Source: an uncultured Chthonomonas sp. (GTDB lineage: Bacteria > Armatimonadota > Chthonomonadetes > Chthonomonadales > CAJBBX01). From it: DNA of 64,000 nucleotides. Shown here one piece after another: positions 1 to 12,888 of the stretch. The stretch is taken from positions 11,412 through 75,411 of the forward strand of contig CAJBBX010000053.1 of the NCBI GenBank assembly GCA_903951425.1, read 5' to 3'. A model generated the notes under the pieces. The model was not told the origin of the DNA. It worked only from the letters and a program-made list of their open reading frames with translations, and did no database searches. The position numbers were made by a program, and so were the translations under genes. The first letter of the stretch is position 1. Every line of letters begins with the position of its first letter.

Positions 1-1248
1 ATCTGCCCCGTTCCGCCCGGCGGGCTGGTGATGCTCCGCGATGAGGCGGATGCCGAGCGCATCGGGATGGCTCGGCCCGCCCTCAGCGCGCCTGCGTCCG
101 GGCCAGCGGGGCTTGCAGACGCCCTGCGCCGCTTGCTGGAGGAGGCGGTCGCGGAGCGCATCCCGGCCCGCGGCAGGGCCGCCATCCTGGTCAGTGGCGG
201 CCTCGACTCCTCCTCCATCGCCGTGCTGGCCCACGGTCTGGCTCGCAATGGGCAGGCGTCAGCGCCCGTGGGCATACAGAATGTCTTCTCAGGGATGCCG
301 GCCTGCGATGAGCGGGTCTGGACCCAGCCGCTGGTCGACATGGGCATAGCGCTCCGGCACGTTGAGGCCTGTGACCACCTGTTGCCCGGTTCACCGGAGC
401 TGGAGCAGACCCTGGAAGGCCCATGCCTCGGCTGGGAGGGCATAGCCCACGCCCAGTGCGAACTGGTGCGGCAGTGCGGCGCCGAGGTGGTCCTGACGGG
501 CGACTGCGCGGCGCACCACTGGGTCGCGGCTCGCGACGCCGCTGCTCGCGCACTGGTGGAGGGGCGGCTGGGCGCTCTGTCGTGGCAGGTACGGGACCTG
601 CATAGCCTTGCCCGATTGCTGCGCCCCGGCCTGGTGGAGCCGCTGATGCACGACCTGCGCCTCGCCACCGGCCGGGCCCGCGTCTCCCTGCCCTCGTGGC
701 TGGACCGGGGCTTCGCCGAGCAGTCGGGCCTCATTGATCGGCTTCGGGACGACCAACGGCCTCGCGTGGTCGGCCGCCGCCCCGAACACGTGGCCGGGCT
801 GGCGGGTTCCGTGGGCAGGGCGATCACATGGCGCAACCGCCACTTCTCGCGCCTGGGCGTCGACCTCCGGTGCCCGCTGATGGACACCCGCGTGATCGAC
901 TTCCTCCACTCGCTTCCGGTCACCGACGTCCATGCCGCCTGCGAGGATCGCGTCATTCTCCGTCGCGCCATGGCGGGCCTGCTGCCCGACAGCCTCCGCA
1001 CTCGCACGGCCAAGGCGGTTTTCCTGCCCTACATGGAGCATGGCCTGCGCACGCATGGTGAGGCCATGCTGGAGGCCTTCCGCGCTCCCTTGCTGGCCGA
1101 CCTGGGCGCGGTAGACGCCGGGCGCCTCACGGCTGCCGCGCAGGCCTTCCTGGGCGGCTCGCGCAAGGGCTACGACCTGTGGATGCCCCTGACCCTGGAG
1201 CGGTGGCTTCGCCGCCACGGCGACGAGCTACGCAATATCACGCCGTAG
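1..1248 (+). CDS. asparagine synthetase-like PP-loop amidotransferase, C-terminal part (5' end outside window)
   Basis: Frame 1 is open from base 1. The translation carries the PP-loop motif SGGLDSS (ILVSGGLDSSSIAVLA) typical of AsnB-type synthetase domains. Stop at 1246-1248. Confidence 0.7.
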   Translation: MCPVPPGGLVMLRDEADAERIGMARPALSAPASGPAGLADALRRLLEEAVAERIPARGRAAILVSGGLDSSSIAVLAHGLARNGQASAPVGIQNVFSGMPACDERVWTQPLVDMGIALRHVEACDHLLPGSPELEQTLEGPCLGWEGIAHAQCELVRQCGAEVVLTGDCAAHHWVAARDAAARALVEGRLGALSWQVRDLHSLARLLRPGLVEPLMHDLRLATGRARVSLPSWLDRGFAEQSGLIDRLRDDQRPRVVGRRPEHVAGLAGSVGRAITWRNRHFSRLGVDLRCPLMDTRVIDFLHSLPVTDVHAACEDRVILRRAMAGLLPDSLRTRTAKAVFLPYMEHGLRTHGEAMLEAFRAPLLADLGAVDAGRLTAAAQAFLGGSRKGYDLWMPLTLERWLRRHGDELRNITP

Positions 1249-3088
1249 GATCGACGTCAACGATCGCCTCGGCCACGGCGGGCAGGGCGCGGCCGTTCCA
1301 GACGAGGTCGAACAGGACCGTGTGGACGCCAGGCTCACTCGGCGTGGCGCCCGTCACGGTGCACCGGGCCTCGTCGTGTCCCGTTGCCGACAGGCGCTGC
1401 TCCGCGCTTCCTAACGCAGCATCGCGGATCTGGATGCGCCCCGCCGATGGGCCGGCGCTGTGGTTCTGCACCACCACATCCCACGTCAGGCGCTGGCCCG
1501 GCCTCGCCCTGCGGTGGTAGGGCTCCAGCCTCACCCACTGGGCGTCCAGCCCGTAGTTTGGGTCGTCCCACGCCAGCAGTTCGCGAAACCGCGCCCGTCG
1601 CGTCCGCAGGCCGGCTCGCAGGCGGCGGATGTCGGCTTGGCTGAAATCGAACGCGCCGGGGCAGTGCTGGTTCACAAGGAGCGTGGGGCAGGGGAGTGAG
1701 GCGAGGGTCTGCAGGCAGGCGTCCATGCCCCGGCCCCGGCCGAGGTGGTTCCGGTTCAGGGCGCAGTAGTCGTCGAGCCCGCCCGGCGTCAGGCTGTCGC
1801 CGACGAAGAGGACGCGCTCCCCGTCGCGCTCGACCAGTAGCGCCGCGTCCAGCGCGGTCTGGCCGGGGAAGTCCAGGGCGGTCAGGCGGAACCCGCGCCA
1901 CTCCCATGTCTCACCGTGGATCGTCACCCGGTCCACCGGGATCGGCGTCGGGTCGAGGCACGGCATCAGGTAGGCCTCCGGCGCCTCCAGGATGCCCTGT
2001 AGCGTCCGATGGGCCACGACCGCGCATGTCAACCGGTTCCGGGCCTCGTTCACCCTCTCCACGTGGTCGTCGTGGGTGTGCGTGACCCAGAGAGACTCCA
2101 CGGCGCGGATTTCGCCGTCGGCCAGCAGGGCGGCCACCGCGTCTGCGGCCTCGCCCGCGGAGTCGATGAGCAGCGCCTCGCCGTTCGGCGCCACGATGAG
2201 CCGCGAGGTGGGCGACAGCTCGCGGACCCACTCGGGCAGCGGGCGCAGCCGTGCCTCGCCCTCCGAGCGGTCGGCGGGCCACTCCGGCCGCATTCCTGCG
2301 AAGTACCAGCGGGCCGAGGTGGTTGCGTGATAGGCCGCCATCGCCGCCTCGATGCGCCGCCGCAGAAGGGCGACGGCCTCTGCCGGGCGCGTCACCACGG
2401 CGCCGAAGGAGGGGACGAGCAGGTCGGGCTTCCGGTCCAGTACGGCGTCCAGCGACCGCAACAGGTCATCGCACCGCTCGCCGAACCCGTGGTACTCCAT
2501 CATCCGGCCGCCGCCGGGCAGCGGTCGGGCGCCCTGAAGCGTATGGAACTCGCGGAGCCTGCCGTGGCCGCACATCAGGTCGCCCACGAAGGCCACGCGC
2601 GGGCCGCCGGCCTCGGCGAGGTAGGTGACGCCGCCGCCGGTTGGTCCGGCGCCGGGCATGACCTCGAACCGCACGCCGCGCCACTCGAAGGCGTCGCCGG
2701 GCACCACCTCTACGGCCACCGGCACGTTCTGGGCGAATACCCGGTGCGAGGGGTGGAAGTGGTAGCCGTGAACCCGCCAGCCGCCGCCGGCCCAGAAGCC
2801 CTGCGCATCGCGCAAGAGGCCGGCCTCCGCGACCGGTGCATGGACCCGGGCGCCCGCGGCCGCAAGTTCCGGCAGGCCCGGCGCTGCCATGCGGTCATGG
2901 TGAGTGCATAGGACGACCTCGACGGAGCCCGGCGCGATGCCGGCGCGTTCAAGCAGGGCGGCAACCGGCCCGCCGATGATCAGCGAGCCGTCGCCGCGCC
3001 GGAACACGCCGGCGTTGCAGCCCATCTGCCAGACTTCGAGGCCCGCGCCGATATTGGCCAAGCGGCGGGGCCTCACGAACCTGTCCAT
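1238..3088 (-). CDS. tandem metallo-beta-lactamase-fold hydrolase with Ig-like C-terminal domain
   Basis: Two MBL-type metal motifs occur in one ORF (VLCTHHDRM and WVTHTHDDHV). I chose ATG 3088 (MDRFVRPRR) because the longer 3139 start would overlap the neighbouring gene end at 3106. Confidence 0.65.
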   Translation of the reverse strand: MDRFVRPRRLANIGAGLEVWQMGCNAGVFRRGDGSLIIGGPVAALLERAGIAPGSVEVVLCTHHDRMAAPGLPELAAAGARVHAPVAEAGLLRDAQGFWAGGGWRVHGYHFHPSHRVFAQNVPVAVEVVPGDAFEWRGVRFEVMPGAGPTGGGVTYLAEAGGPRVAFVGDLMCGHGRLREFHTLQGARPLPGGGRMMEYHGFGERCDDLLRSLDAVLDRKPDLLVPSFGAVVTRPAEAVALLRRRIEAAMAAYHATTSARWYFAGMRPEWPADRSEGEARLRPLPEWVRELSPTSRLIVAPNGEALLIDSAGEAADAVAALLADGEIRAVESLWVTHTHDDHVERVNEARNRLTCAVVAHRTLQGILEAPEAYLMPCLDPTPIPVDRVTIHGETWEWRGFRLTALDFPGQTALDAALLVERDGERVLFVGDSLTPGGLDDYCALNRNHLGRGRGMDACLQTLASLPCPTLLVNQHCPGAFDFSQADIRRLRAGLRTRRARFRELLAWDDPNYGLDAQWVRLEPYHRRARPGQRLTWDVVVQNHSAGPSAGRIQIRDAALGSAEQRLSATGHDEARCTVTGATPSEPGVHTVLFDLVWNGRALPAVAEAIVDVDPTA

Positions 3089-4734: not shown

Positions 4735-4931
4735 CCGAGAGTAGCTCCTTCGTTCCGGCAGGGCGGCCCATGGCTCGCTTCGCCGCCGGTTGCTGTAAGT
4801 GAAGACGCAACGACGGCGTTCCGGGTGTCCATTCGGCACCAGATCCGCCTGTAAGCAGGCCAGATGGGTACCAGGGTCCCCATCATGATGGTCAATCTGG
4901 ACTGGGGGGCCTGCCGGTTGGCCGGACGTCG

Positions 4932-4940
4932 TGATATAGT
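4932..4940 (+). promoter_or_regulatory. extended -10 promoter element of RNA candidate copy 1
   Basis: TGaTATAGT. The homologous position in copy 2 reads TGaTATGAT. Confidence 0.4.
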
Positions 4941-4947
4941 ATTCCCG

Positions 4948-5047
4948 AACATGTGAGGCAAGGATGCGGGGAGACCTGCATCCCGCCTAATGGCTCTCTC
5001 AAGCCCGGCCCTGGTTCGGTGTGCCGCCTACCAGGGCCTCTTTTTTT
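4948..5047 (+). ncRNA. candidate structured small RNA, copy 1 (family not recognised)
   Basis: A 9-bp hairpin with a GAGA tetraloop lies at 4962-4983. The terminator hairpin pairs GGCCCTGGT (5007-5015) with ACCAGGGCC (5030-5038) and is followed by seven T (5041-5047). No + strand ORF flanks it. Confidence 0.5.
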
Positions 5048-5056
5048 GCGTCTAGG

Positions 5057-5470
5057 CTATAGCTGGGCCCGGCATTGAAGCCACCAGATCCCCGTGCCGT
5101 TCGCGACCCCGGCGCCGGGGTCCACCGTCAGCGTCTTGCTCGCGCCGATGACGCCGCCGCCCGTGGCGCTCCGCAGGTTGTCGTTCGCTTCGCTGTTGTC
5201 GTGCGCGTATGCCCACATAACGTACAGCGTGCACCGGCTCCGCGTGTCGAACTCCGCAGTGAAGCAGGCAAACCGGACCCGCCTTGCCCGAACATGCCTC
5301 CAGCGCCTCACCCATGAGTTTGCAGCGCCCGAAGCGCCGTATGGCGTCCGCGGCGACGGCGAGGTCGTGCGGCGTTCCGAACAGCAGGCCCCGCCGCGCC
5401 CCACGATGCCGTCGACGCGGCAACCGCGACGGCGCTCCCGGTGTCCATCGCACGCCACACTGGCATGCAA
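5057..5470 (-). pseudogene. truncated, frameshifted copy of the C-terminal ~135 codons of gene 5672..6568
   Basis: Three reading frames each carry pieces homologous to the full-length paralog. Examples are RGLLFGTPHDLAVAADAIRRFGRCKLMGEALEA and FTAEFDTRSRCTLYVMWAYAHDNSEANDNLRSATGGGVIGASKTLTVDPGAGVANGTGIWWLQCRAQL. There is no N-terminal part and no start. Confidence 0.65.
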
Positions 5471-5547
5471 GCAGTCCAGATGAGTACCAGAGATCGCAGA
5501 ATGTGATGCCGAAAGGACCAGCGCTCGTACCAGTCACCTCGCGTCCA

Positions 5548-5556
5548 TGATATGAT
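5548..5556 (+). promoter_or_regulatory. extended -10 promoter element of RNA candidate copy 2
   Basis: TGaTATGAT, at the same distance from the conserved ACATGTGAGG start region as in copy 1. Confidence 0.4.
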
Positions 5557-5563
5557 ATCTGTG

Positions 5564-5662
5564 AACATGTGAGGCCTTGGTGCAGGGAGACCTGCACTTC
5601 CGCCTAATGGCTCTTTCAAGCCCGGCCCTGGTTCGGTGTGCCGCCTACCAGGGCCTTTTTTT
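5564..5662 (+). ncRNA. candidate structured small RNA, copy 2
   Basis: Hairpin GTGCAGG-GAGA-CCTGCAC at 5580-5597. The terminator hairpin spans 5624-5655 and is followed by seven T (5656-5662). Confidence 0.5.
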
Positions 5663-5671
5663 GCGTCTAGG

Positions 5672-6568
5672 CTAGAGCTGGACCCGGCACTGAAGCCACC
5701 AGACCCCCTTGCCGTTCACCACTCCGGCGCCGGGTTCCACCGTCAGCGTCTTGCTAGCGCCGATGAGCACGCCGCCGATCGCGCTTCGCAGGTTGGTGCT
5801 GTCCTCGCTGTTGTCGTGCGAGTAGAGCCACGAGACATACGGCGTGTACCGGGTGCGTGTGTCAAACTCCGCAGTGAGGGACGCGAAACGGAAGCCGCCC
5901 TTGCTCGACATCGCCTCCAGCGCCTCGCCCACGAGCTTGCACCGTCCCAGGCGCCGCGTGGCGTCCGCGGCGATTGCCACATCGTGCGCACTGCCGAACA
6001 GCAGTCCGCGCCCGGCTCCGATGGAGATGCCCGCCGCGCTGCCGTTCTCCCACTCCTTGCCCAGCCGCGTGTAGGCGTTGCCGCGTCGGGTCCGCTCATC
6101 GAACGCCGCAGTGCTGCTCAGGCTGAGATCACCGATGCGCGTGTCGGCTGCCACACCCCACTTCGCCTCGTACTCCCAAGCCTGTGCGGCGAAGGGCACA
6201 TACCGCTTGCCGACCCAGATGCGCCCGTCATTGGGTAGTCGGCCAGACCAATACGCCTCGTTCGGCTGGTGGAAGACATGGGCGCTACCGTTGTGCATGT
6301 CGCCGAGCCCCACAGTGACGCGGGCGTTGGATCCGTCCGCCATGTTCCAGTCGAGGCCGGCGTACGAGGGGTAGCCCACCATGGCTCCGGCCCACTGGCC
6401 GTCGGTATGGCGGCGAAGGGCGCCGGTCATGTTGCTGAGGCCCCAGTAGGCATCCAGATGGAAGACAGGGCCCATCGGGGGCGTTTCCGGCTCTTCTCCG
6501 GCGACGGCCGCCAGCGGCGCAACGCCCAGGAGGGTCGCGGCTACCAAGGGCAACATCCATCTGCTCAA
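5672..6568 (-). CDS. secreted beta-rich protein (possible outer-membrane barrel), full-length paralog
   Basis: ORF 5672..6913. The signal peptide (W)MLPLVAATLLGVAPLAAVAG begins near 6556-6568, and GAAGGAG lies 8 nt before TTG 6568. The C-terminus is ...GVWWLQCRVQL. The start is uncertain by a few codons. Confidence 0.6.
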   Translation of the reverse strand: MSRWMLPLVAATLLGVAPLAAVAGEEPETPPMGPVFHLDAYWGLSNMTGALRRHTDGQWAGAMVGYPSYAGLDWNMADGSNARVTVGLGDMHNGSAHVFHQPNEAYWSGRLPNDGRIWVGKRYVPFAAQAWEYEAKWGVAADTRIGDLSLSSTAAFDERTRRGNAYTRLGKEWENGSAAGISIGAGRGLLFGSAHDVAIAADATRRLGRCKLVGEALEAMSSKGGFRFASLTAEFDTRTRYTPYVSWLYSHDNSEDSTNLRSAIGGVLIGASKTLTVEPGAGVVNGKGVWWLQCRVQL

Positions 6569-6690: not shown

Positions 6691-6772
6691 GCTGCCAAGA
6701 AGACGACAAGACGATCCGTTTGTCGTGAGTTGGCCGGCCGCGCAGCCGCGGCCACGAAAGGAGTTCCGCGTC

Positions 6773-8410
6773 ATGTTCTGTTACCAGTGTGAGCAGACCC
6801 TCAAGGGGACGGGTTGCACCGACCAGGGCGTCTGCGGCAAGGATGCCACCACGGCGGCCCTTCAGGACCTGCTGCTCTTCGCGTGTCGGGGCATCGCCAC
6901 CTACGCGCATCACTCACGCCTTCTGGGCGTGGTGGACCGCGAGGCCGACCAGGCCGTCATCGAGGGGCTCTTCACCACGGTCACCAACGTCAACTTCCAC
7001 CCGATCCTGCTTGAGCGCCAGGTGCGCGAGGCCGCCCAGGTCCGCGACCGCGCTCGGACACGCTACGAGGCGGCCGCAGGAGCCGCCGCGCAGAGCTTCA
7101 ACGGGCCCTGCAGCTGGACTCCTGCCGACGACACCGACATGCTGGTGGCTCAGGGGCGCTTCGCGGCCATCACCGGGCGCCGTTCGGCCCTGGGCGACGA
7201 CTACGTGGGCCTGCAGGAGCTGTTGACGTACGGCCTGAAGGGCGTCGCGGCCTACTACGAGCATGCCGTCAAGCTCGGCGTGATCGACGATGCCGTGGCC
7301 GCGCAGTTCAACGAACTGCTCCACTGCCTAAACCGCACTGACCTGACCGCCGACGAGCTACTGGGCAAGTGCCTGGAGTGCGGCACGCTGAACCTCCGCG
7401 TCATGGAGCTTCTCGACGCCGCGCACACCAGCACCTTCGGCCACCCTGAGCCCACGCAGGTCCGCGTCGAGCCGCTCAAGGGCAAGGCCATCGTCGTCTC
7501 CGGCCACGACCTGCCAGACCTCTACGCGCTCCTGCAGCAAACCGAGGGCAAGGGCATCAACGTCTACACCCATGGCGAGATGCTCCCGGCGCACGGCTAT
7601 CCCGAGCTCAAGAAGTTCAAGCACCTCGTCGGAAACTTCGGCGGGGCCTGGCAGAACCAGATCTCCGAGTTCGCCGAGCTGCCCGGCGCAGTGCTCATGA
7701 CGACAAACTGCATCCAGCGGCCGACCGACGAGTACATCGACCGCATCTTCACCTCGGGCCTCGTGGCCTGGCCCGGCGTCCTGCATATCAGCGACCAGGA
7801 CTTCACCCCGGTCATCGAGGCCGCCCTGGCCGCCCCCGGCTTCACCGAGGATGGTCCGGATCGCTACACCATGACGGGTTTCGGCCACAACGCAGTCCTG
7901 AGCGTGGCCGACAAGGTCGTCGGGGCAGTCAAGAACGGCGAGATCAAGCACTTCTTCCTCATCGGCGGCTGCGACGGCGGCAAGCCGGGCCGCAACTACT
8001 ACACCAAGCTGGCCCAGGCCGCGCCCAAGGACACGGTGATCCTCACCCTGGCCTGTGGCAAGTACCGCTTCAACAAGCTGGAGTTCGGCACGGTCGCCGG
8101 CCTGCCACGCATGCTCGACATCGGCCAGTGCAACGACACCTACTCGGCCATCAAGATCGCCTCGGCCCTGGCCGGCGCGTTCGAGTGCGGCGTCAACGAC
8201 CTGCCGCTCTCGATCATCCTCTCGTGGTACGAGCAGAAGGCCGTGGCGGTCCTCCTGACGCTCCTCAGCCTGGGCATCAAGGGCATGCGCATCGGCCCGT
8301 CCCTGCCGGCGTTCCTCACGCCCAACCTGGTGAGCAAGATCGTCGAGGCCTACGACCTGAAGCCCATCGGCACCGTCGAGGGCGACATGGCGGCCATGCT
8401 GTCGGCTTAG
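6773..8410 (+). CDS. hcp: hybrid-cluster protein / hydroxylamine reductase
   Basis: Starts MFCYQCEQTLKGTGCTDQGVCGK, the N-terminal Cys cluster of Hcp. The length is ~545 aa. GGAG lies 9 nt upstream of ATG 6773. Confidence 0.9.
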   Translation: MFCYQCEQTLKGTGCTDQGVCGKDATTAALQDLLLFACRGIATYAHHSRLLGVVDREADQAVIEGLFTTVTNVNFHPILLERQVREAAQVRDRARTRYEAAAGAAAQSFNGPCSWTPADDTDMLVAQGRFAAITGRRSALGDDYVGLQELLTYGLKGVAAYYEHAVKLGVIDDAVAAQFNELLHCLNRTDLTADELLGKCLECGTLNLRVMELLDAAHTSTFGHPEPTQVRVEPLKGKAIVVSGHDLPDLYALLQQTEGKGINVYTHGEMLPAHGYPELKKFKHLVGNFGGAWQNQISEFAELPGAVLMTTNCIQRPTDEYIDRIFTSGLVAWPGVLHISDQDFTPVIEAALAAPGFTEDGPDRYTMTGFGHNAVLSVADKVVGAVKNGEIKHFFLIGGCDGGKPGRNYYTKLAQAAPKDTVILTLACGKYRFNKLEFGTVAGLPRMLDIGQCNDTYSAIKIASALAGAFECGVNDLPLSIILSWYEQKAVAVLLTLLSLGIKGMRIGPSLPAFLTPNLVSKIVEAYDLKPIGTVEGDMAAMLSA

Positions 8411-8467: not shown

Positions 8468-10990
8468 TCAGCGTCTCGGCTCCGATCCCCAGAGCGCCCG
8501 AACGAAGAAGTCCCGGAGCCGACGCGTGCCGTAGGGCGTGCCGCTGGGGCAGTGGCCGCCGTTGGGCACCACCAGCAGGTCGAAGTCCTTGTCCGCCTTG
8601 ATGAGCGCGTCGACCACCTGCATGGTGCTGGCCGGGTCGACGTTGGTGTCCATCTCCCCGACGATCAGCAGCAGCTTGCCCTTGATGTTCTTGGCGTTGG
8701 TCACGTTGGACTGCTCGGCGTAGTGCGGGCCCACGGGCCAGCCCATCCATAGCTCGTTCCACCAGACCTTGTCCATGCGGTTGTCATGGCAGCCGCAGTC
8801 GGCCACGGCCGCCTTGTAGAAGTCCGGGTAGGTCTCCAGCCCGCGCAGCGCGTTCTGCCCGCCCGCCGATCCGCCGTAGATGCCCACCCGCGTCAGGTCC
8901 ATCCAGGGCCGCGTCTTTGCCGCCGCCTGCATCCAGAGGATGCGGTCCGGGAAGCCTGCGTCGCCCAGATTCCGGGCGCAGACGTCGTGGAACGCCTTGG
9001 ATCGGCCTGAGGTGCCCATGCCGTCCATCTGCACTACGATGAAGCCCAGCTCGGCCAGCTCCTGCATCCCGTTCCACGCCGACCATCCCTTGGGCGTGAA
9101 GAAGCCCTGCGGACCGGCGTAGATGCTTTCGATGACCGGATAGCGCTTCCCCGGCCTGAAGTTCGAGGGCCGGTAGATGACCCCGTAGATGTCCGTCAGC
9201 CCGTCGCGCCCCTTGGCCGCGAAGCGCTCGGGCATCTTCCAGCCCGCTTTCAGCAGCGCCGATGCGTCGCCCCGTTCGAGCAGGCAGACCGGCGAACCGT
9301 CCCGCGTGCGCCGTAGCTCAGTGACGGGCGGCATGTCGGTCCGCGAGTAGGCGTCCAGGTAGAACTCCCCGTCCGGCGAATCGGTGAGGGCGTGGTTGCC
9401 GTCGCCGCTGGTCAGCCGCAACAGCCCCTTGCCGTCGAAGCCCACCCGGCACTGGTGGAGGTAGTAGGGGTCCTGGGCCGGGTCAATGCCTCCGCAGCTG
9501 AACCAGACCTCCCGCTTCGCCTCATCCACGCGCTCCACGCTTCGCACCACCCAGGCGCCCTGCGTCACGCGGCTCTTCACGGCCCCCGTGCGGCTGTCGA
9601 TGAGGTAGAGGTGGTTCCAGCCGTCCCGCTCCGACATCCAGAGTATCTCGCTCGTGGCATCAAGGTACCGACAGAAGTGCTTGCCCGCGTAGTCGATGAA
9701 GGTCTTGCTGGTCTCGTCCACGATGGCAGTGGCGGCGCCTGAAGCGGCGTCCACAGCGACGATCCGAAGGACCTGATGCCCGCGCTGGTTGTAGACGAAT
9801 GTGAAGCGCGACGAGTCGGCGTCCCACCGGATGTCGGAGACCGACCAGGCGTGCGGGAAGAGCGTGTTCGCCACCGGGATTTCGCGCCGGGCCGTCACAT
9901 CGAAGAGGTGCGGCGTGGGGACGGGGAGCTTGTCGCCGGGCTTGTGGTAGTCGAGCGTCAGGAGCTTGGGCTGCACCTGGTCTGGGGGCGATGATTGCAC
10001 GATGTAGACCTTGTGCTCCTCGCCGGCCAGCGTCCGCACCGCCACCAGCCGCTGTGAGTCGGGCGCCCAGACGATCTCGCCGTAGGCGTCGCCGAGCTTG
10101 CCGTCGGCGCTCAGGGCCGTCTCGGCTCCCGTGGCCGCGTCGCGGAGCCAGACGTTGGCGTCGCGCACGAAGGCGATCCACTTGTCGTCGGGCGAGCGCC
10201 CCGGCTCAGCCTGCCGCGTCTGCTCCCCGCGCCCCCGTGGCCGGCCGCTGGTCCGCTGCGGCGCGCTACCGTCGATGACGGCCGTCCCCGGGCTGTCCGC
10301 CGCCTCGTAGACGCCCAGCGTCTTGCCCGCGGCATCGGTGGCGAGCCATACGTGGCCCGCGAACGAGTGCTGCTCGCGGCTCTCACCGGCGGCCAGCGTG
10401 CCGTAGGCCTTGCGTCCGCCCTCGCTGTCGATCCAGAAGAGGCTGATGGGCCCGCTAGTGCGGTTCTGGAAGAGGATGGCCGACTCGTCGCCGGTGCGGC
10501 TGGAGGGCCTGACCTGCATCGAGCGCGGCAGCGTGGCCTGCTCGGGCGCCGTTCCGGTCGCCGGCGCGAGGGTGTAGTCGGTCAACGAACAGCGCCACGT
10601 CTTGCCGCCCGCACCGAAGGTGACGGCGGTGCAGGCGTCATCCAGCGCGATGGCGTCGAACGGCAGCTTGGCGGCGTCCACGGGTTTGCCTAGGGCCGTC
10701 GCCATCGCCGTCGCCAGGCGCTTGTGGTCGAAGGCAAGCGCCCTCCCGCCGGCCTGCGCATCGACGAGCACGAACTCCTTGCGCCCCGCCGCCAGGTCGT
10801 TGCGGTACCAGAACCGGCGCCCGCCGGCGAACCAGTGCGGCTGCACCCGAGTGCGGAACACAGAGGTCCGCGCCGCGGCGCGCATCGTCTCGATGCGGGC
10901 GTAGTCCTCCTTGGCGCCCTGGCCAAGGGCGGGGCACGTCACCAGCAGCGCGGCGACGGCGAGGGCAGGGGAGCGACGAAGTTTCGGCAT
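8468..10990 (-). CDS. S9-family serine peptidase, dipeptidyl-peptidase IV-like
   Basis: Signal peptide [23 protein letters not shown], then a long propeller-like N-terminal region. The C-terminal alpha/beta hydrolase carries the nucleophile motif GGSAGG ([12 protein letters not shown]). Confidence 0.8.
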
Positions 10991-11125: not shown

Positions 11126-11127
11126 AC

Positions 11128-11976
11128 TCACCCCTTCGCTTCCTCACCAACCGGCGCCTCCGCCGCGCGCACCAGCCGGTCCGCGTCCGTGGCGACGACG
11201 CCCGCTGCGGCGGGGCGGACCAGCCTGTCGCCCAGCGCCGACGCGTCGGCAGGGCGCAGGAGGGTGCCGTACTGGGTCAGCCGCACGGCTGCTGCCTCGG
11301 CTCCGGGCAGGATCTCGGCGGCGAGCTTGCGGATCGCCGGGTCGGCTCCGGCCTTGTGCTCTCCGGCGGCCACCTCGCGGATGGCCTTCACCGCCGCCTC
11401 GTCGGCCACCTGCTCATAGCCCTTCAGGATCGCCGCGCTCAGCTTGGGGTTCTTGTAGGCCAGCATGCGCCTGGTCAGCGCCCTGCGATGCGCCTCCTCC
11501 AAAAGGTCGTGGTCGCTGGCCTTGAGGCGCGGCAGTAGCTCCACCAGCGTGGGCTCGACGGCTGCGGTGACATCGTCATCGTTGTAGTCCAGGGCATCGG
11601 TCAGCGGGCCCACGCCTCGCACATCGTCGTATTTGGCAAGCTCCTTGGCGGCATTCCGGTAGGTCTGGCTGAGGGCGAAAGACCCAACCAGGACGTTGAC
11701 CAAGCTGATGTAACTTGTCAGGTCGCTGGCGTGTCCCGATACGACACTGTAGACAGCTACGGATGCCAAGAACACGGTGACCCCGATGCCGATCCGGCGG
11801 CTCCTCAGGCGCCGGGCGGCGTGGGACCGTACGGTCACGAGCAGGGCGTCGACACCGGCCGTGTCCACCTCGCGTCGGGCGCGGTCGCGTAACTCATCCT
11901 TGTCGCTGCTCAGCGCATCAAGGATGTTCGGCGAGATCACCCCGTCCTTCGGTCCTTCGTTAATCAGTCTGCCCAC
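11128..11976 (-). CDS. HEAT-like repeat protein with central two-helix membrane hairpin, paralog A
   Basis: 282 aa. Hydrophobic segments IGIGVTVFLASVAVYSVV and YISLVNVLVGSFALS. HEAT/PBS-lyase-like helices (AAVKAIREVAAGEHKAGADPAIRKLAAEIL). Confidence 0.65.
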   Translation of the reverse strand: MGRLINEGPKDGVISPNILDALSSDKDELRDRARREVDTAGVDALLVTVRSHAARRLRSRRIGIGVTVFLASVAVYSVVSGHASDLTSYISLVNVLVGSFALSQTYRNAAKELAKYDDVRGVGPLTDALDYNDDDVTAAVEPTLVELLPRLKASDHDLLEEAHRRALTRRMLAYKNPKLSAAILKGYEQVADEAAVKAIREVAAGEHKAGADPAIRKLAAEILPGAEAAAVRLTQYGTLLRPADASALGDRLVRPAAAGVVATDADRLVRAAEAPVGEEAKG

Positions 11977-12039
11977 TCAACGCTCCACTCGGGATAACGT
12001 CTGCACCACTACCAGCGCCCGTCACGCCCCTTCACCCGC

Positions 12040-12888
12040 TCACCCCTTCACCTCCTCACCGACAGGCGCCTCCGCCGCGCGCACCAGCCGGTCCGCGTCC
12101 GTGGCGAAGACGCCCGCCGCGGCGGGGCGGACCAGCCTGTCGCCCAGCGCCGACGCGTCGGCAGGGCGAAGGAGGGTGCCGTACTGGGTCAGCCGCACGG
12201 CCGCGGACTCGGCTCCGGGCAGGACGTCGGCGGCGAGCTTGCGGATCGCCGGATCGGCTCCGGCCTTGTGCTCTCCTGCGGCCACCTCGCGGATGGCCTT
12301 CACCGCCGCCTCGTCGGCCACCTGCTCATAGCCCTTCAGGATCGCCGCGCTCAGCTTGGGGTTCTTGTAGGCCAGCATGCGCTTGGTCAGCGCCTTGCGG
12401 TGCGCCTCCTCCAGCAGGTCGTGGTCGCTGGCCTTGAGGCGCGGCAGTAGCTCCACCAGCGTGGGCTCGACGGCTGCGGTCGTCTCCTTGTCCTGGAACT
12501 CCAGCGCCTCGGTCAGTGGGCCCACGCCTCGCACGTCGTCGTACTTCGCGAGCTCCTTGGCGGCATTGCGCTGCGCCTGGCTCGCGGCAAAGAGCGTGGC
12601 AAGAACTCCGGTCATGCCGCCGAAGCTACCCATGCTCTTGCCGTGGTCGGTAGCGACCATGATGATGACGAGTAGCGCGTAAAAGCAGAGGATGCCGATG
12701 CCCACCTTGCGCCGCTTTGCACGCCGCATGCCCTCGGCGCGCACGGTGGCCAGCAGGGCGTCGACGCCCGCCTGGTCCACCACCTGGCGCGCCTGCTCGC
12801 GGATCTGCACCTTCTTGCTGCTCAAGGCCTCCAGCGTCTTCGAGTCGATGGCCTGGCCCTGCGGCTCCTCGTGTATGAGACTGCCCAC
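12040..12888 (-). CDS. HEAT-like repeat protein with central two-helix membrane hairpin, paralog B
   Basis: 282 aa with the same architecture. The C-terminal ~145 aa are nearly identical to paralog A. Confidence 0.65.
   Translation of the reverse strand: MGSLIHEEPQGQAIDSKTLEALSSKKVQIREQARQVVDQAGVDALLATVRAEGMRRAKRRKVGIGILCFYALLVIIMVATDHGKSMGSFGGMTGVLATLFAASQAQRNAAKELAKYDDVRGVGPLTEALEFQDKETTAAVEPTLVELLPRLKASDHDLLEEAHRKALTKRMLAYKNPKLSAAILKGYEQVADEAAVKAIREVAAGEHKAGADPAIRKLAADVLPGAESAAVRLTQYGTLLRPADASALGDRLVRPAAAGVFATDADRLVRAAEAPVGEEVKG

Follow-up and report, generated by a model that had tools for sequence, protein, structure and literature searches.

We examined a 64,000-nucleotide (nt) stretch of DNA from an uncultured Chthonomonas sp. 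of the phylum Armatimonadota (contig CAJBBX010000053.1), hereafter the window, in which an earlier sequence-only reading had pointed to two + strand units of about 100 nt. Both units are present as described, with the -10 boxes, hairpins, and U runs listed for them. We call them W1 and W2 and treat them as predicted small RNA (sRNA) genes, each comprising a short 5' block, a long hairpin (P1), a shorter hairpin (P2), and a terminator hairpin (P3) that runs into a U tail. Their parts lie as follows.

4932-4933 and 4935-4940, + strand: predicted W1 promoter, with a TG extension and the -10 hexamer TATAGT, 6 nt before G+1
4947-5047, + strand: W1, predicted sRNA gene of ~101 nt (covariance model score 119.4 bits; minimum free energy fold)
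4947-4958, + strand: W1 invariant 5' block, of which 4947-4955 are unpaired in the fold
4956-4988, + strand: W1 P1, including its GGC/GCC base
4992-5005, 5007-5038, and 5039-5047, + strand: W1 P2, terminator P3, and U tail
5548-5549 and 5551-5556, + strand: predicted W2 promoter, with a TG extension and the -10 hexamer TATGAT, 6 nt before G+1
5563-5662, + strand: W2, predicted sRNA gene of ~100 nt (covariance model score 118.9 bits; predicted folds)
5563-5574, 5572-5605, and 5609-5622, + strand: W2 invariant 5' block, P1, and P2
5624-5655 and 5656-5662, + strand: W2 terminator P3 and U tail

The extended -10 boxes read TGaTATAGT (4932-4940) in W1 and TGaTATGAT (5548-5556) in W2. P1 takes the form GGAUGCGGG-GAGA-CCUGCAUCC in the first unit and GGUGCAGG-GAGA-CCUGCACU in the second, and the three pair changes previously described between them are all correct: one A-U pair becomes G-C through changes on both sides, one G.U becomes A-U, and one G-C becomes G.U. 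The stretch CCGCCTAATGGCTCT is common to both units (4983-4997 and 5600-5614), but it had been described as unpaired and is in fact partly paired, with its GCC(U) closing the base of P1 and its GGCU forming the 5' arm of P2. After the 9-bp terminator stem GGCCCUGGU/ACCAGGGCC, W1 has UCU7 and W2 has U7. Folding relative to shuffled sequences gave z = -4.0 for W1 and -4.5 for W2. The opposite strand folded nearly as well (z = -3.5 and -4.1), so folding energy alone cannot choose the strand. A consensus promoter and terminator scanner reported nothing at W1 or W2 because of the weak -35 boxes and a terminator loop above the scanner's 8-nt limit; this null does not count against either unit.

To these two units we could add seven more. 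The nine distinct copies come from four species-level lineages within a single clade of uncultured freshwater Armatimonadota, in which each genome has two or three. All nine score 75-119 bits against our covariance model R1. Synteny of the neighboring proteins gave six of them (W1, W2, L4A, L4B, L035, and L039), and the other three (L009, L015, and L027) came from a scan of one genome per species with the DNA pattern TCAAGCCCGG-N6-20-GGTGTGCCGCC. That scan returned 24 stretches, and the covariance model was passed by L009, L015, L027, and L017, from two Armatimonadota metagenome-assembled genomes; L017 is the same DNA as L004 and was not counted as a separate copy. The remaining 20 stretches were rejected as chance matches in unrelated phyla.

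The copies fall into two types by location. Type 1 (W1, W2, L4A, L4B, L009, and L035) lies between a gene for a 255-amino-acid secreted protein and a gene for a secreted beta-rich protein. Type 2 (L015, L027, and L039) occupies an unrelated locus, divergent from a gene of ~1000 amino acids that encodes a large, probably secreted protein without a family match. The window's proteins also occur on metagenome contigs of one species (L001-L003), and L039 probably comes from the window's own species because it shares its sampling project with L003. Among named relatives, the nearest are "Armatimonadota bacterium LacPavin_0920_WC57_MAG_69_10" (L004) and "uncultured Chthonomonas sp. LaPlata-b_bin-0775". 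In L004, the syntenic region holds two intact beta-rich paralogs followed by two tandem RNA copies, L4A and L4B. The fourth lineage is represented by L035, which was retrieved through its neighboring proteins.

All nine copies have the same predicted fold, and 62 of ~102 alignment columns are invariant. The 5' block GAACAUGUGAGG, which makes up the first 12 nt, never varies; approximately its first 10 nt are unpaired in the predicted folds, while its last GG pairs at the base of P1. This block contains the palindrome ACAUGU (4949-4956 and 5565-5572), which would allow RNA-RNA self-pairing or could serve as a DNA operator. P1 is a long hairpin closed by GGC/GCC whose sequence, length, and loop are variable while its pairing is kept. 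Four copies have a GAGA loop, one has GUAA, one has CAUC, and the loops of the three type 2 copies are 7-12 nt long, so that the GNRA tetraloop once thought to characterize the unit is found in only five of the nine. A variable linker of 4-5 nt leads to P2 (GGCU-CUCUCA-AGCC), which lies within the block UGGCUCUCUCAAGCCCGGC and is invariant except for one loop base in W2. A single C then separates P2 from P3, a terminator with a stem of 9-10 bp, an apical sub-hairpin, and an invariant apical part GGUGUGCCGCC, and a run of six to eight U follows the stem in every copy. The proposed seed CCGCCUAAUGGCUCU fared less well, being variable in its 5' half among homologs and partly paired: where the linker of the window copies has the heptamer CCGCCUA, also suggested as a seed, the homologs read CAGCCAA, CCGCUACCUA, ACGCCAA, or ACGCUAA. 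True invariance is limited to the 5' block, P2, and the apical portion of the terminator.

Read from the minus strand, P2 would be GGCUU-GAGA-GAGCC in W1 and GGCUU-GAAA-GAGCC in W2, both 5-bp hairpins with GNRA loops. The sole difference between W1 and W2 in P2 (4992-5005 and 5609-5622) preserves this minus-strand GNRA loop.

The variation in P1 and the terminator bears directly on whether the structure is maintained. In an alignment fitted to the model, 99.1% of pair cells are paired across the nine copies, and both sides have changed in six pairs, four of them in P1 and two in the terminator stem. The observed covariation score was reached by none of 500 shuffles. When the 3' partners were slid by one to three columns, pairing fell to 29-56%, and RNAalifold returned the same fold from the same model-fitted alignment. 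Base pairs in P1 and the terminator stem are kept via compensatory changes, the pattern that marks a predicted structured RNA. The sequence-only reading had named the keeping of the hairpins in homologs as a test of its claim, and the pairing of P1 and the terminator were indeed kept across all nine copies.

The same pairs also indicate a strand. There are 22 G.U cells, which would be A.C on the other strand, and the opposite strand would pair 90.2% of cells. The P1 helices of type 2 contribute further G.U pairs. Together with the U run, which follows the stem on this strand only, as expected of the intrinsic terminator previously assigned to the + strand alone, the G.U pairs favor the + strand.

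These observations speak to the possibility that the unit is a repeated DNA element, either a mobile repeat or an operator-plus-terminator module conserved as DNA. Such an element would fit the presence of several copies per genome within tandem duplications and the palindrome ACATGT at +3 to +8. However, compensatory changes and strand-specific G.U pairs point to RNA-level selection, and the unit is bounded exactly by the -10 box and the U run, its ends having neither terminal inverted repeats nor target-site duplications. We therefore consider a DNA element very improbable. A mobile repeat resembling miniature inverted-repeat transposable elements or repetitive extragenic palindromes was also rejected as a candidate, there being only two or three copies per genome and no match in viral contigs.

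Changes in the length of P1 similarly bear on whether the unit could encode a small protein. A 41-codon open reading frame with a GTG start (4953-5078) does overlap W1, and an AUG stands at nt 5-7 of the RNA. Yet UGA directly follows this AUG, the 1-, 2-, and 7-nt indels in P1 break any frame, and W1 and W2 have no open reading frame in common, which leaves a coding role hardly conceivable.

Conservation of the unit also exceeded that of the surrounding DNA. Between the window and L004, identity at third codon positions of the flanking genes is 68-84%. The three RNA blocks show no difference in any copy, and six of those copies came to light without the DNA pattern. W1 shares 94-95% identity with the L009 and L035 copies, its positional orthologs; the neighboring beta-rich genes reach only about 80%. 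These comparisons point firmly to purifying selection on the three blocks. The view that the units are structured + strand RNAs under selection was thus borne out by the nine copies, the compensatory changes, and the fixed position of the -10 box, and we hold it highly probable that they form a real, transcribed, structured sRNA gene family, with the transcript itself being a prediction.

The 5' boundary is equally regular. A TAnnnT -10 hexamer lies exactly 6 nt before G+1 in nine of nine copies, and the similarity between type 1 and type 2 starts at this box and stops at the U run. Each copy thus appears to carry a promoter of its own, set at a constant distance from the predicted start site at the conserved 5' end. 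The extended -10 had been presented as a shared element, but its TG extension is kept in only four copies (W1, W2, L009, and L035). Type 2 copies have -35 boxes reading TTGTCA, TTGTAT, or TTGCAT at 18-nt spacing, while that of W1 (CTGCCG) is weak and matches the consensus at three of six positions. Upstream of W1 and W2 we noted a further motif.

4860-4874, + strand: upstream motif CCAGATGGGTACCAG, ~60 nt before the W1 -10 box
5476-5490, + strand: second copy of the upstream motif, CCAGATGAGTACCAG, before W2

The motif CCAGATGNGTACCAG consists of CCAG repeated 11 bp apart. The window holds two matches against 0.35 expected, and similar motifs precede L009, L035, and L4B. The motif is confined to the upstream DNA of type 1 copies, whose promoters have a weak -35, and could be a binding site for an activator or other regulator.

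We found no known family to which these RNAs belong. Rfam 15 gave no matches across the whole window at gathering thresholds, in agreement with the earlier statement that the unit matched no known family. In E-value mode, searches with 1.2 kb of the region, W1 alone, and one type 2 copy yielded only sub-threshold noise on the + strand, with best scores of 17.8 bits for ctRNA_pGA1 (threshold 45) and 20.8 bits for Spot_42 (threshold 80). No tRNA or tmRNA was predicted in the region, and a text search of the literature, as well as Rfam, gave no small regulatory RNA described for Armatimonadota. The RNAs therefore constitute a new family of a well-known kind that is not in Rfam.

Further searches did not extend the distribution. 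A metagenome scan with a pattern of the 5' block and the terminator loop gave five matches, none of which passed the covariance model; a scan of viral contigs gave two chance matches and no member; and no additional members emerged with a second model, for which all nine copies were used. The RNA was also missing at five more distant syntenic loci (L040, L041, L042, L045, and L046), which encode homologs of the type 2 neighbor at ~50% identity. So far, and within the searches made, the family is restricted to one clade of uncultured freshwater Armatimonadota.

What such an RNA might do is suggested by its layout. Base-pairing sRNAs usually begin with an unpaired, invariant 5' end and finish in a terminator followed by a U tail, and the predicted folds match this Hfq-type arrangement, with a conserved, putatively single-stranded seed and a terminator with a U tail. 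We propose that the RNA regulates other transcripts in trans by base pairing. Its seed would be the 5' block, which would pair with mRNAs containing (CC)UCACAUGUUC. This target sequence can extend across an AUG start codon, so that pairing would block initiation or change mRNA stability; target sites under this model would contain UCACAUGUU(C) at start regions. P1 would serve as a structural spacer, and P2, the terminator, and the U tail may form a module for stability and chaperone binding, possibly with a second contact surface. In the window, the RNA gene and the 3' end of the beta-rich gene would move as one cassette, which has been duplicated and partly lost several times. We rate trans base pairing through the 5' block at slightly below an even chance. 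The fuller statement, that W1 and W2 are two paralogous sRNA genes of ~100 nt from a clade-restricted family absent from Rfam and act in trans as regulators with a 5' seed, we think somewhat likelier to be right than wrong.

Several points weigh against this proposal. The transcript ends are predicted from sequence only. The alignment used for the pair counts was fitted to the model, the nine sequences are related and make for weak covariation statistics, and the pattern that found three of the copies itself required 21 of the invariant bases. P2 never varies and is therefore uninformative for covariation, being neither supported nor contradicted, and its form as a GNRA hairpin on the minus strand makes it the only feature to look better there. 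The palindrome at +3 to +8 could be a DNA-level operator rather than an RNA seed. Target searches were also unrewarding. In 117 kb of related DNA, complements of at least 8 nt to the 5' block were absent outside the genes themselves, near-matches to the 12-nt target in the window were at chance level, and the start regions of neighboring genes gave weak duplexes that were inconsistent across three species. Duplex scans of the window returned GC-driven noise only. One weak lead was the start codon region of hcp, encoding a hybrid-cluster protein (CATGTTC, 6772-6778), which is complementary to nt 1-7 of the RNA. This 7-nt match is also present in L004 and is within chance.

The lack of targets in these searches could instead mean that the RNA binds a protein, through sequestration or as part of a ribonucleoprotein, with the 5' block, the P2 loop CUCUCA, and the apical GGUGUGCCGCC as recognition sites. 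Three separate invariant blocks, including a hairpin loop and the terminator tip, are indeed more than a single seed needs. Still, the RNA lacks the repeated short motifs of known protein sponges, its GGA motifs are not kept from copy to copy, the two locus types share no conserved protein gene beside it, and its single-stranded 5' end, terminator, and U tail are those of a base-pairing sRNA. We regard a protein-binding role as improbable.

Among known systems, the layout most resembles OmrA and OmrB, by analogy only. These are adjacent, duplicated, Hfq-dependent sRNAs of enterobacteria in which the 5' end is the seed. Like W1 and W2, they are neighboring paralogous genes of ~80-100 nt with their own promoter and an intrinsic terminator, and they have near-identical 5' ends and 3' terminator parts around a divergent middle. 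The likeness is in layout only, as there is no similarity in sequence or model (RF00079 was not matched). Our RNAs also belong to another phylum, W1 and W2 are separated by a gene fragment, and a third copy lies at another locus. LhrC1-5, Qrr1-5, PrrF1/2, and AbcR1/2 likewise have several paralogs per genome, some in tandem, with conserved single-stranded or loop segments that include the terminator loop. The promoters of those paralogs also differ, as they do between type 1 (weak -35 plus upstream motif) and type 2 (good -35). They have no homology to the present family, whose conserved motifs are GAACAUGUGAGG, CUCUCA, and GGUGUGCCGCC.

The family provides a clean first sRNA candidate for Armatimonadota: its promoter, terminator, and fold are defined, and mutations could be placed in its three invariant segments. 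Its worth lies in giving Rfam-type curation and later target work a solid new sRNA family; it introduces no new principle, and its distribution is narrow.

We also considered the gene that type 1 copies face.

5672-6556, - strand: intact gene for a secreted beta-rich protein of 294 amino acids, convergent with W2 (gene call in syntenic contigs)

The stop codon of this gene is 9 nt past the U run of W2, confirming the abutting, convergent arrangement noted earlier, and the U run is ~9-12 nt from the neighbor's stop codon in all six type 1 copies. This raises the alternative that the unit is mainly a cis element of the beta-rich gene that ends or stabilizes its mRNA, or that couples the two genes through convergent or antisense transcription. 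The scanner showed no other terminator for the beta-rich gene, and a decayed copy of the RNA in L004, described below, keeps the terminator stem alone, right after the stop codon of the first paralog. However, the three type 2 copies hold every invariant block without such a neighbor, no U run follows the hairpin on the neighbor's strand, and the G.U pairs favor the + strand. A terminator role would also leave the promoter, 5' block, and P1 unexplained. A mainly cis function therefore seems unlikely. Equally doubtful, in our estimation, is a combined arrangement in which the sRNA terminator doubles as the 3' end of the convergent mRNA, new paralogs arise antisense-coupled to their own trans regulator, and a type 2 copy supplies the same seed under a different promoter. 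If true, expansion of the gene family would be linked from the outset to control by RNA, in a phylum for which our searches gave no described sRNA.

The position beside a beta-rich gene had also invited a comparison with porin-regulating sRNAs. MicF/ompC and MicC/ompN similarly place an sRNA gene beside a gene for a secreted, beta-rich protein of envelope type. Here, however, the genes are convergent at the 3' end rather than divergent, and there is no convincing complementarity to the neighbor's start region. The type 2 copies have no such gene beside them. The 294-amino-acid protein has only five relatives among 5.8 billion proteins, and sequence searches of Pfam, NCBIfam, and the PDB gave no match and no porin or outer-membrane protein family. 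An AlphaFold2 model was all-beta, but its mean predicted local distance difference test score of 36.8 makes it unreliable and too low for a fold search. The porin analogy was not upheld.

The history of W1 and W2 is recorded in the DNA around them.

4811-6020 (about 4811-5404 and 5426-6020), no strand assigned: tandem duplication with a 615-617-bp period (self-alignment, repeat families)
5057-5420, - strand: decayed, frameshifted C-terminal copy of the beta-rich gene, between W1 and W2

Each duplicated unit combines the RNA gene and its upstream DNA with the 3' third of the beta-rich gene, and W1 and W2 are copies by descent, not independent occurrences. In the 3'-most 63 nt of the RNA they are 97% identical; in the promoter, 5' tail, and P1 the figure is 78%. 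The near-identity of the 3' ~60 nt and the frameshift in copy 1 had thus been read correctly, but the co-duplicated coding DNA is 82% and 77% identical rather than 85-90%. By blastn, the decayed beta-rich copy is 80% identical to the intact gene. In L001, a contig of the same species (8494-8619, against ~5405 in the window), this copy is ~125-140 nt longer, and deletion of the pseudogene is therefore still ongoing within the population.

The beta-rich genes form several paralog lineages that are ~80% identical to one another. They lie at 5672-6556 and 5057-5420 in the window, 8912-9808 and 10001-10897 in L004, and 696-1592 in L035, with 92% identity between the intact gene of the window and the first paralog in L004. 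Between the two L004 paralogs (L004:9824-9853, minus strand of the locus), at the position that corresponds to W2, we found the decayed RNA copy. Of the RNA gene only the terminator stem is left there, with the -10 box, 5' tail, P1, P2, and T run all missing. This copy illustrates sequence erosion under relaxed selection, and its presence in a sister genome provides a natural control. The gene-plus-RNA cassette has been duplicated and lost repeatedly, which shows an RNA gene being duplicated and lost along with a secreted-protein family.

Two other features of the window were observed in passing. A lasso-peptide-like cluster occupies positions 1-3088 and the DNA upstream (L001 1668-6176), a few kilobases from the RNA genes; it contains PqqD-like, transglutaminase-like, and asparagine-synthase-like genes, followed by a gene for a large protein with a metallo-beta-lactamase fold. 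A second tandem duplication, at 11127-12338, has a 912-bp period and 95% identity and holds two adjacent genes of 282 amino acids.

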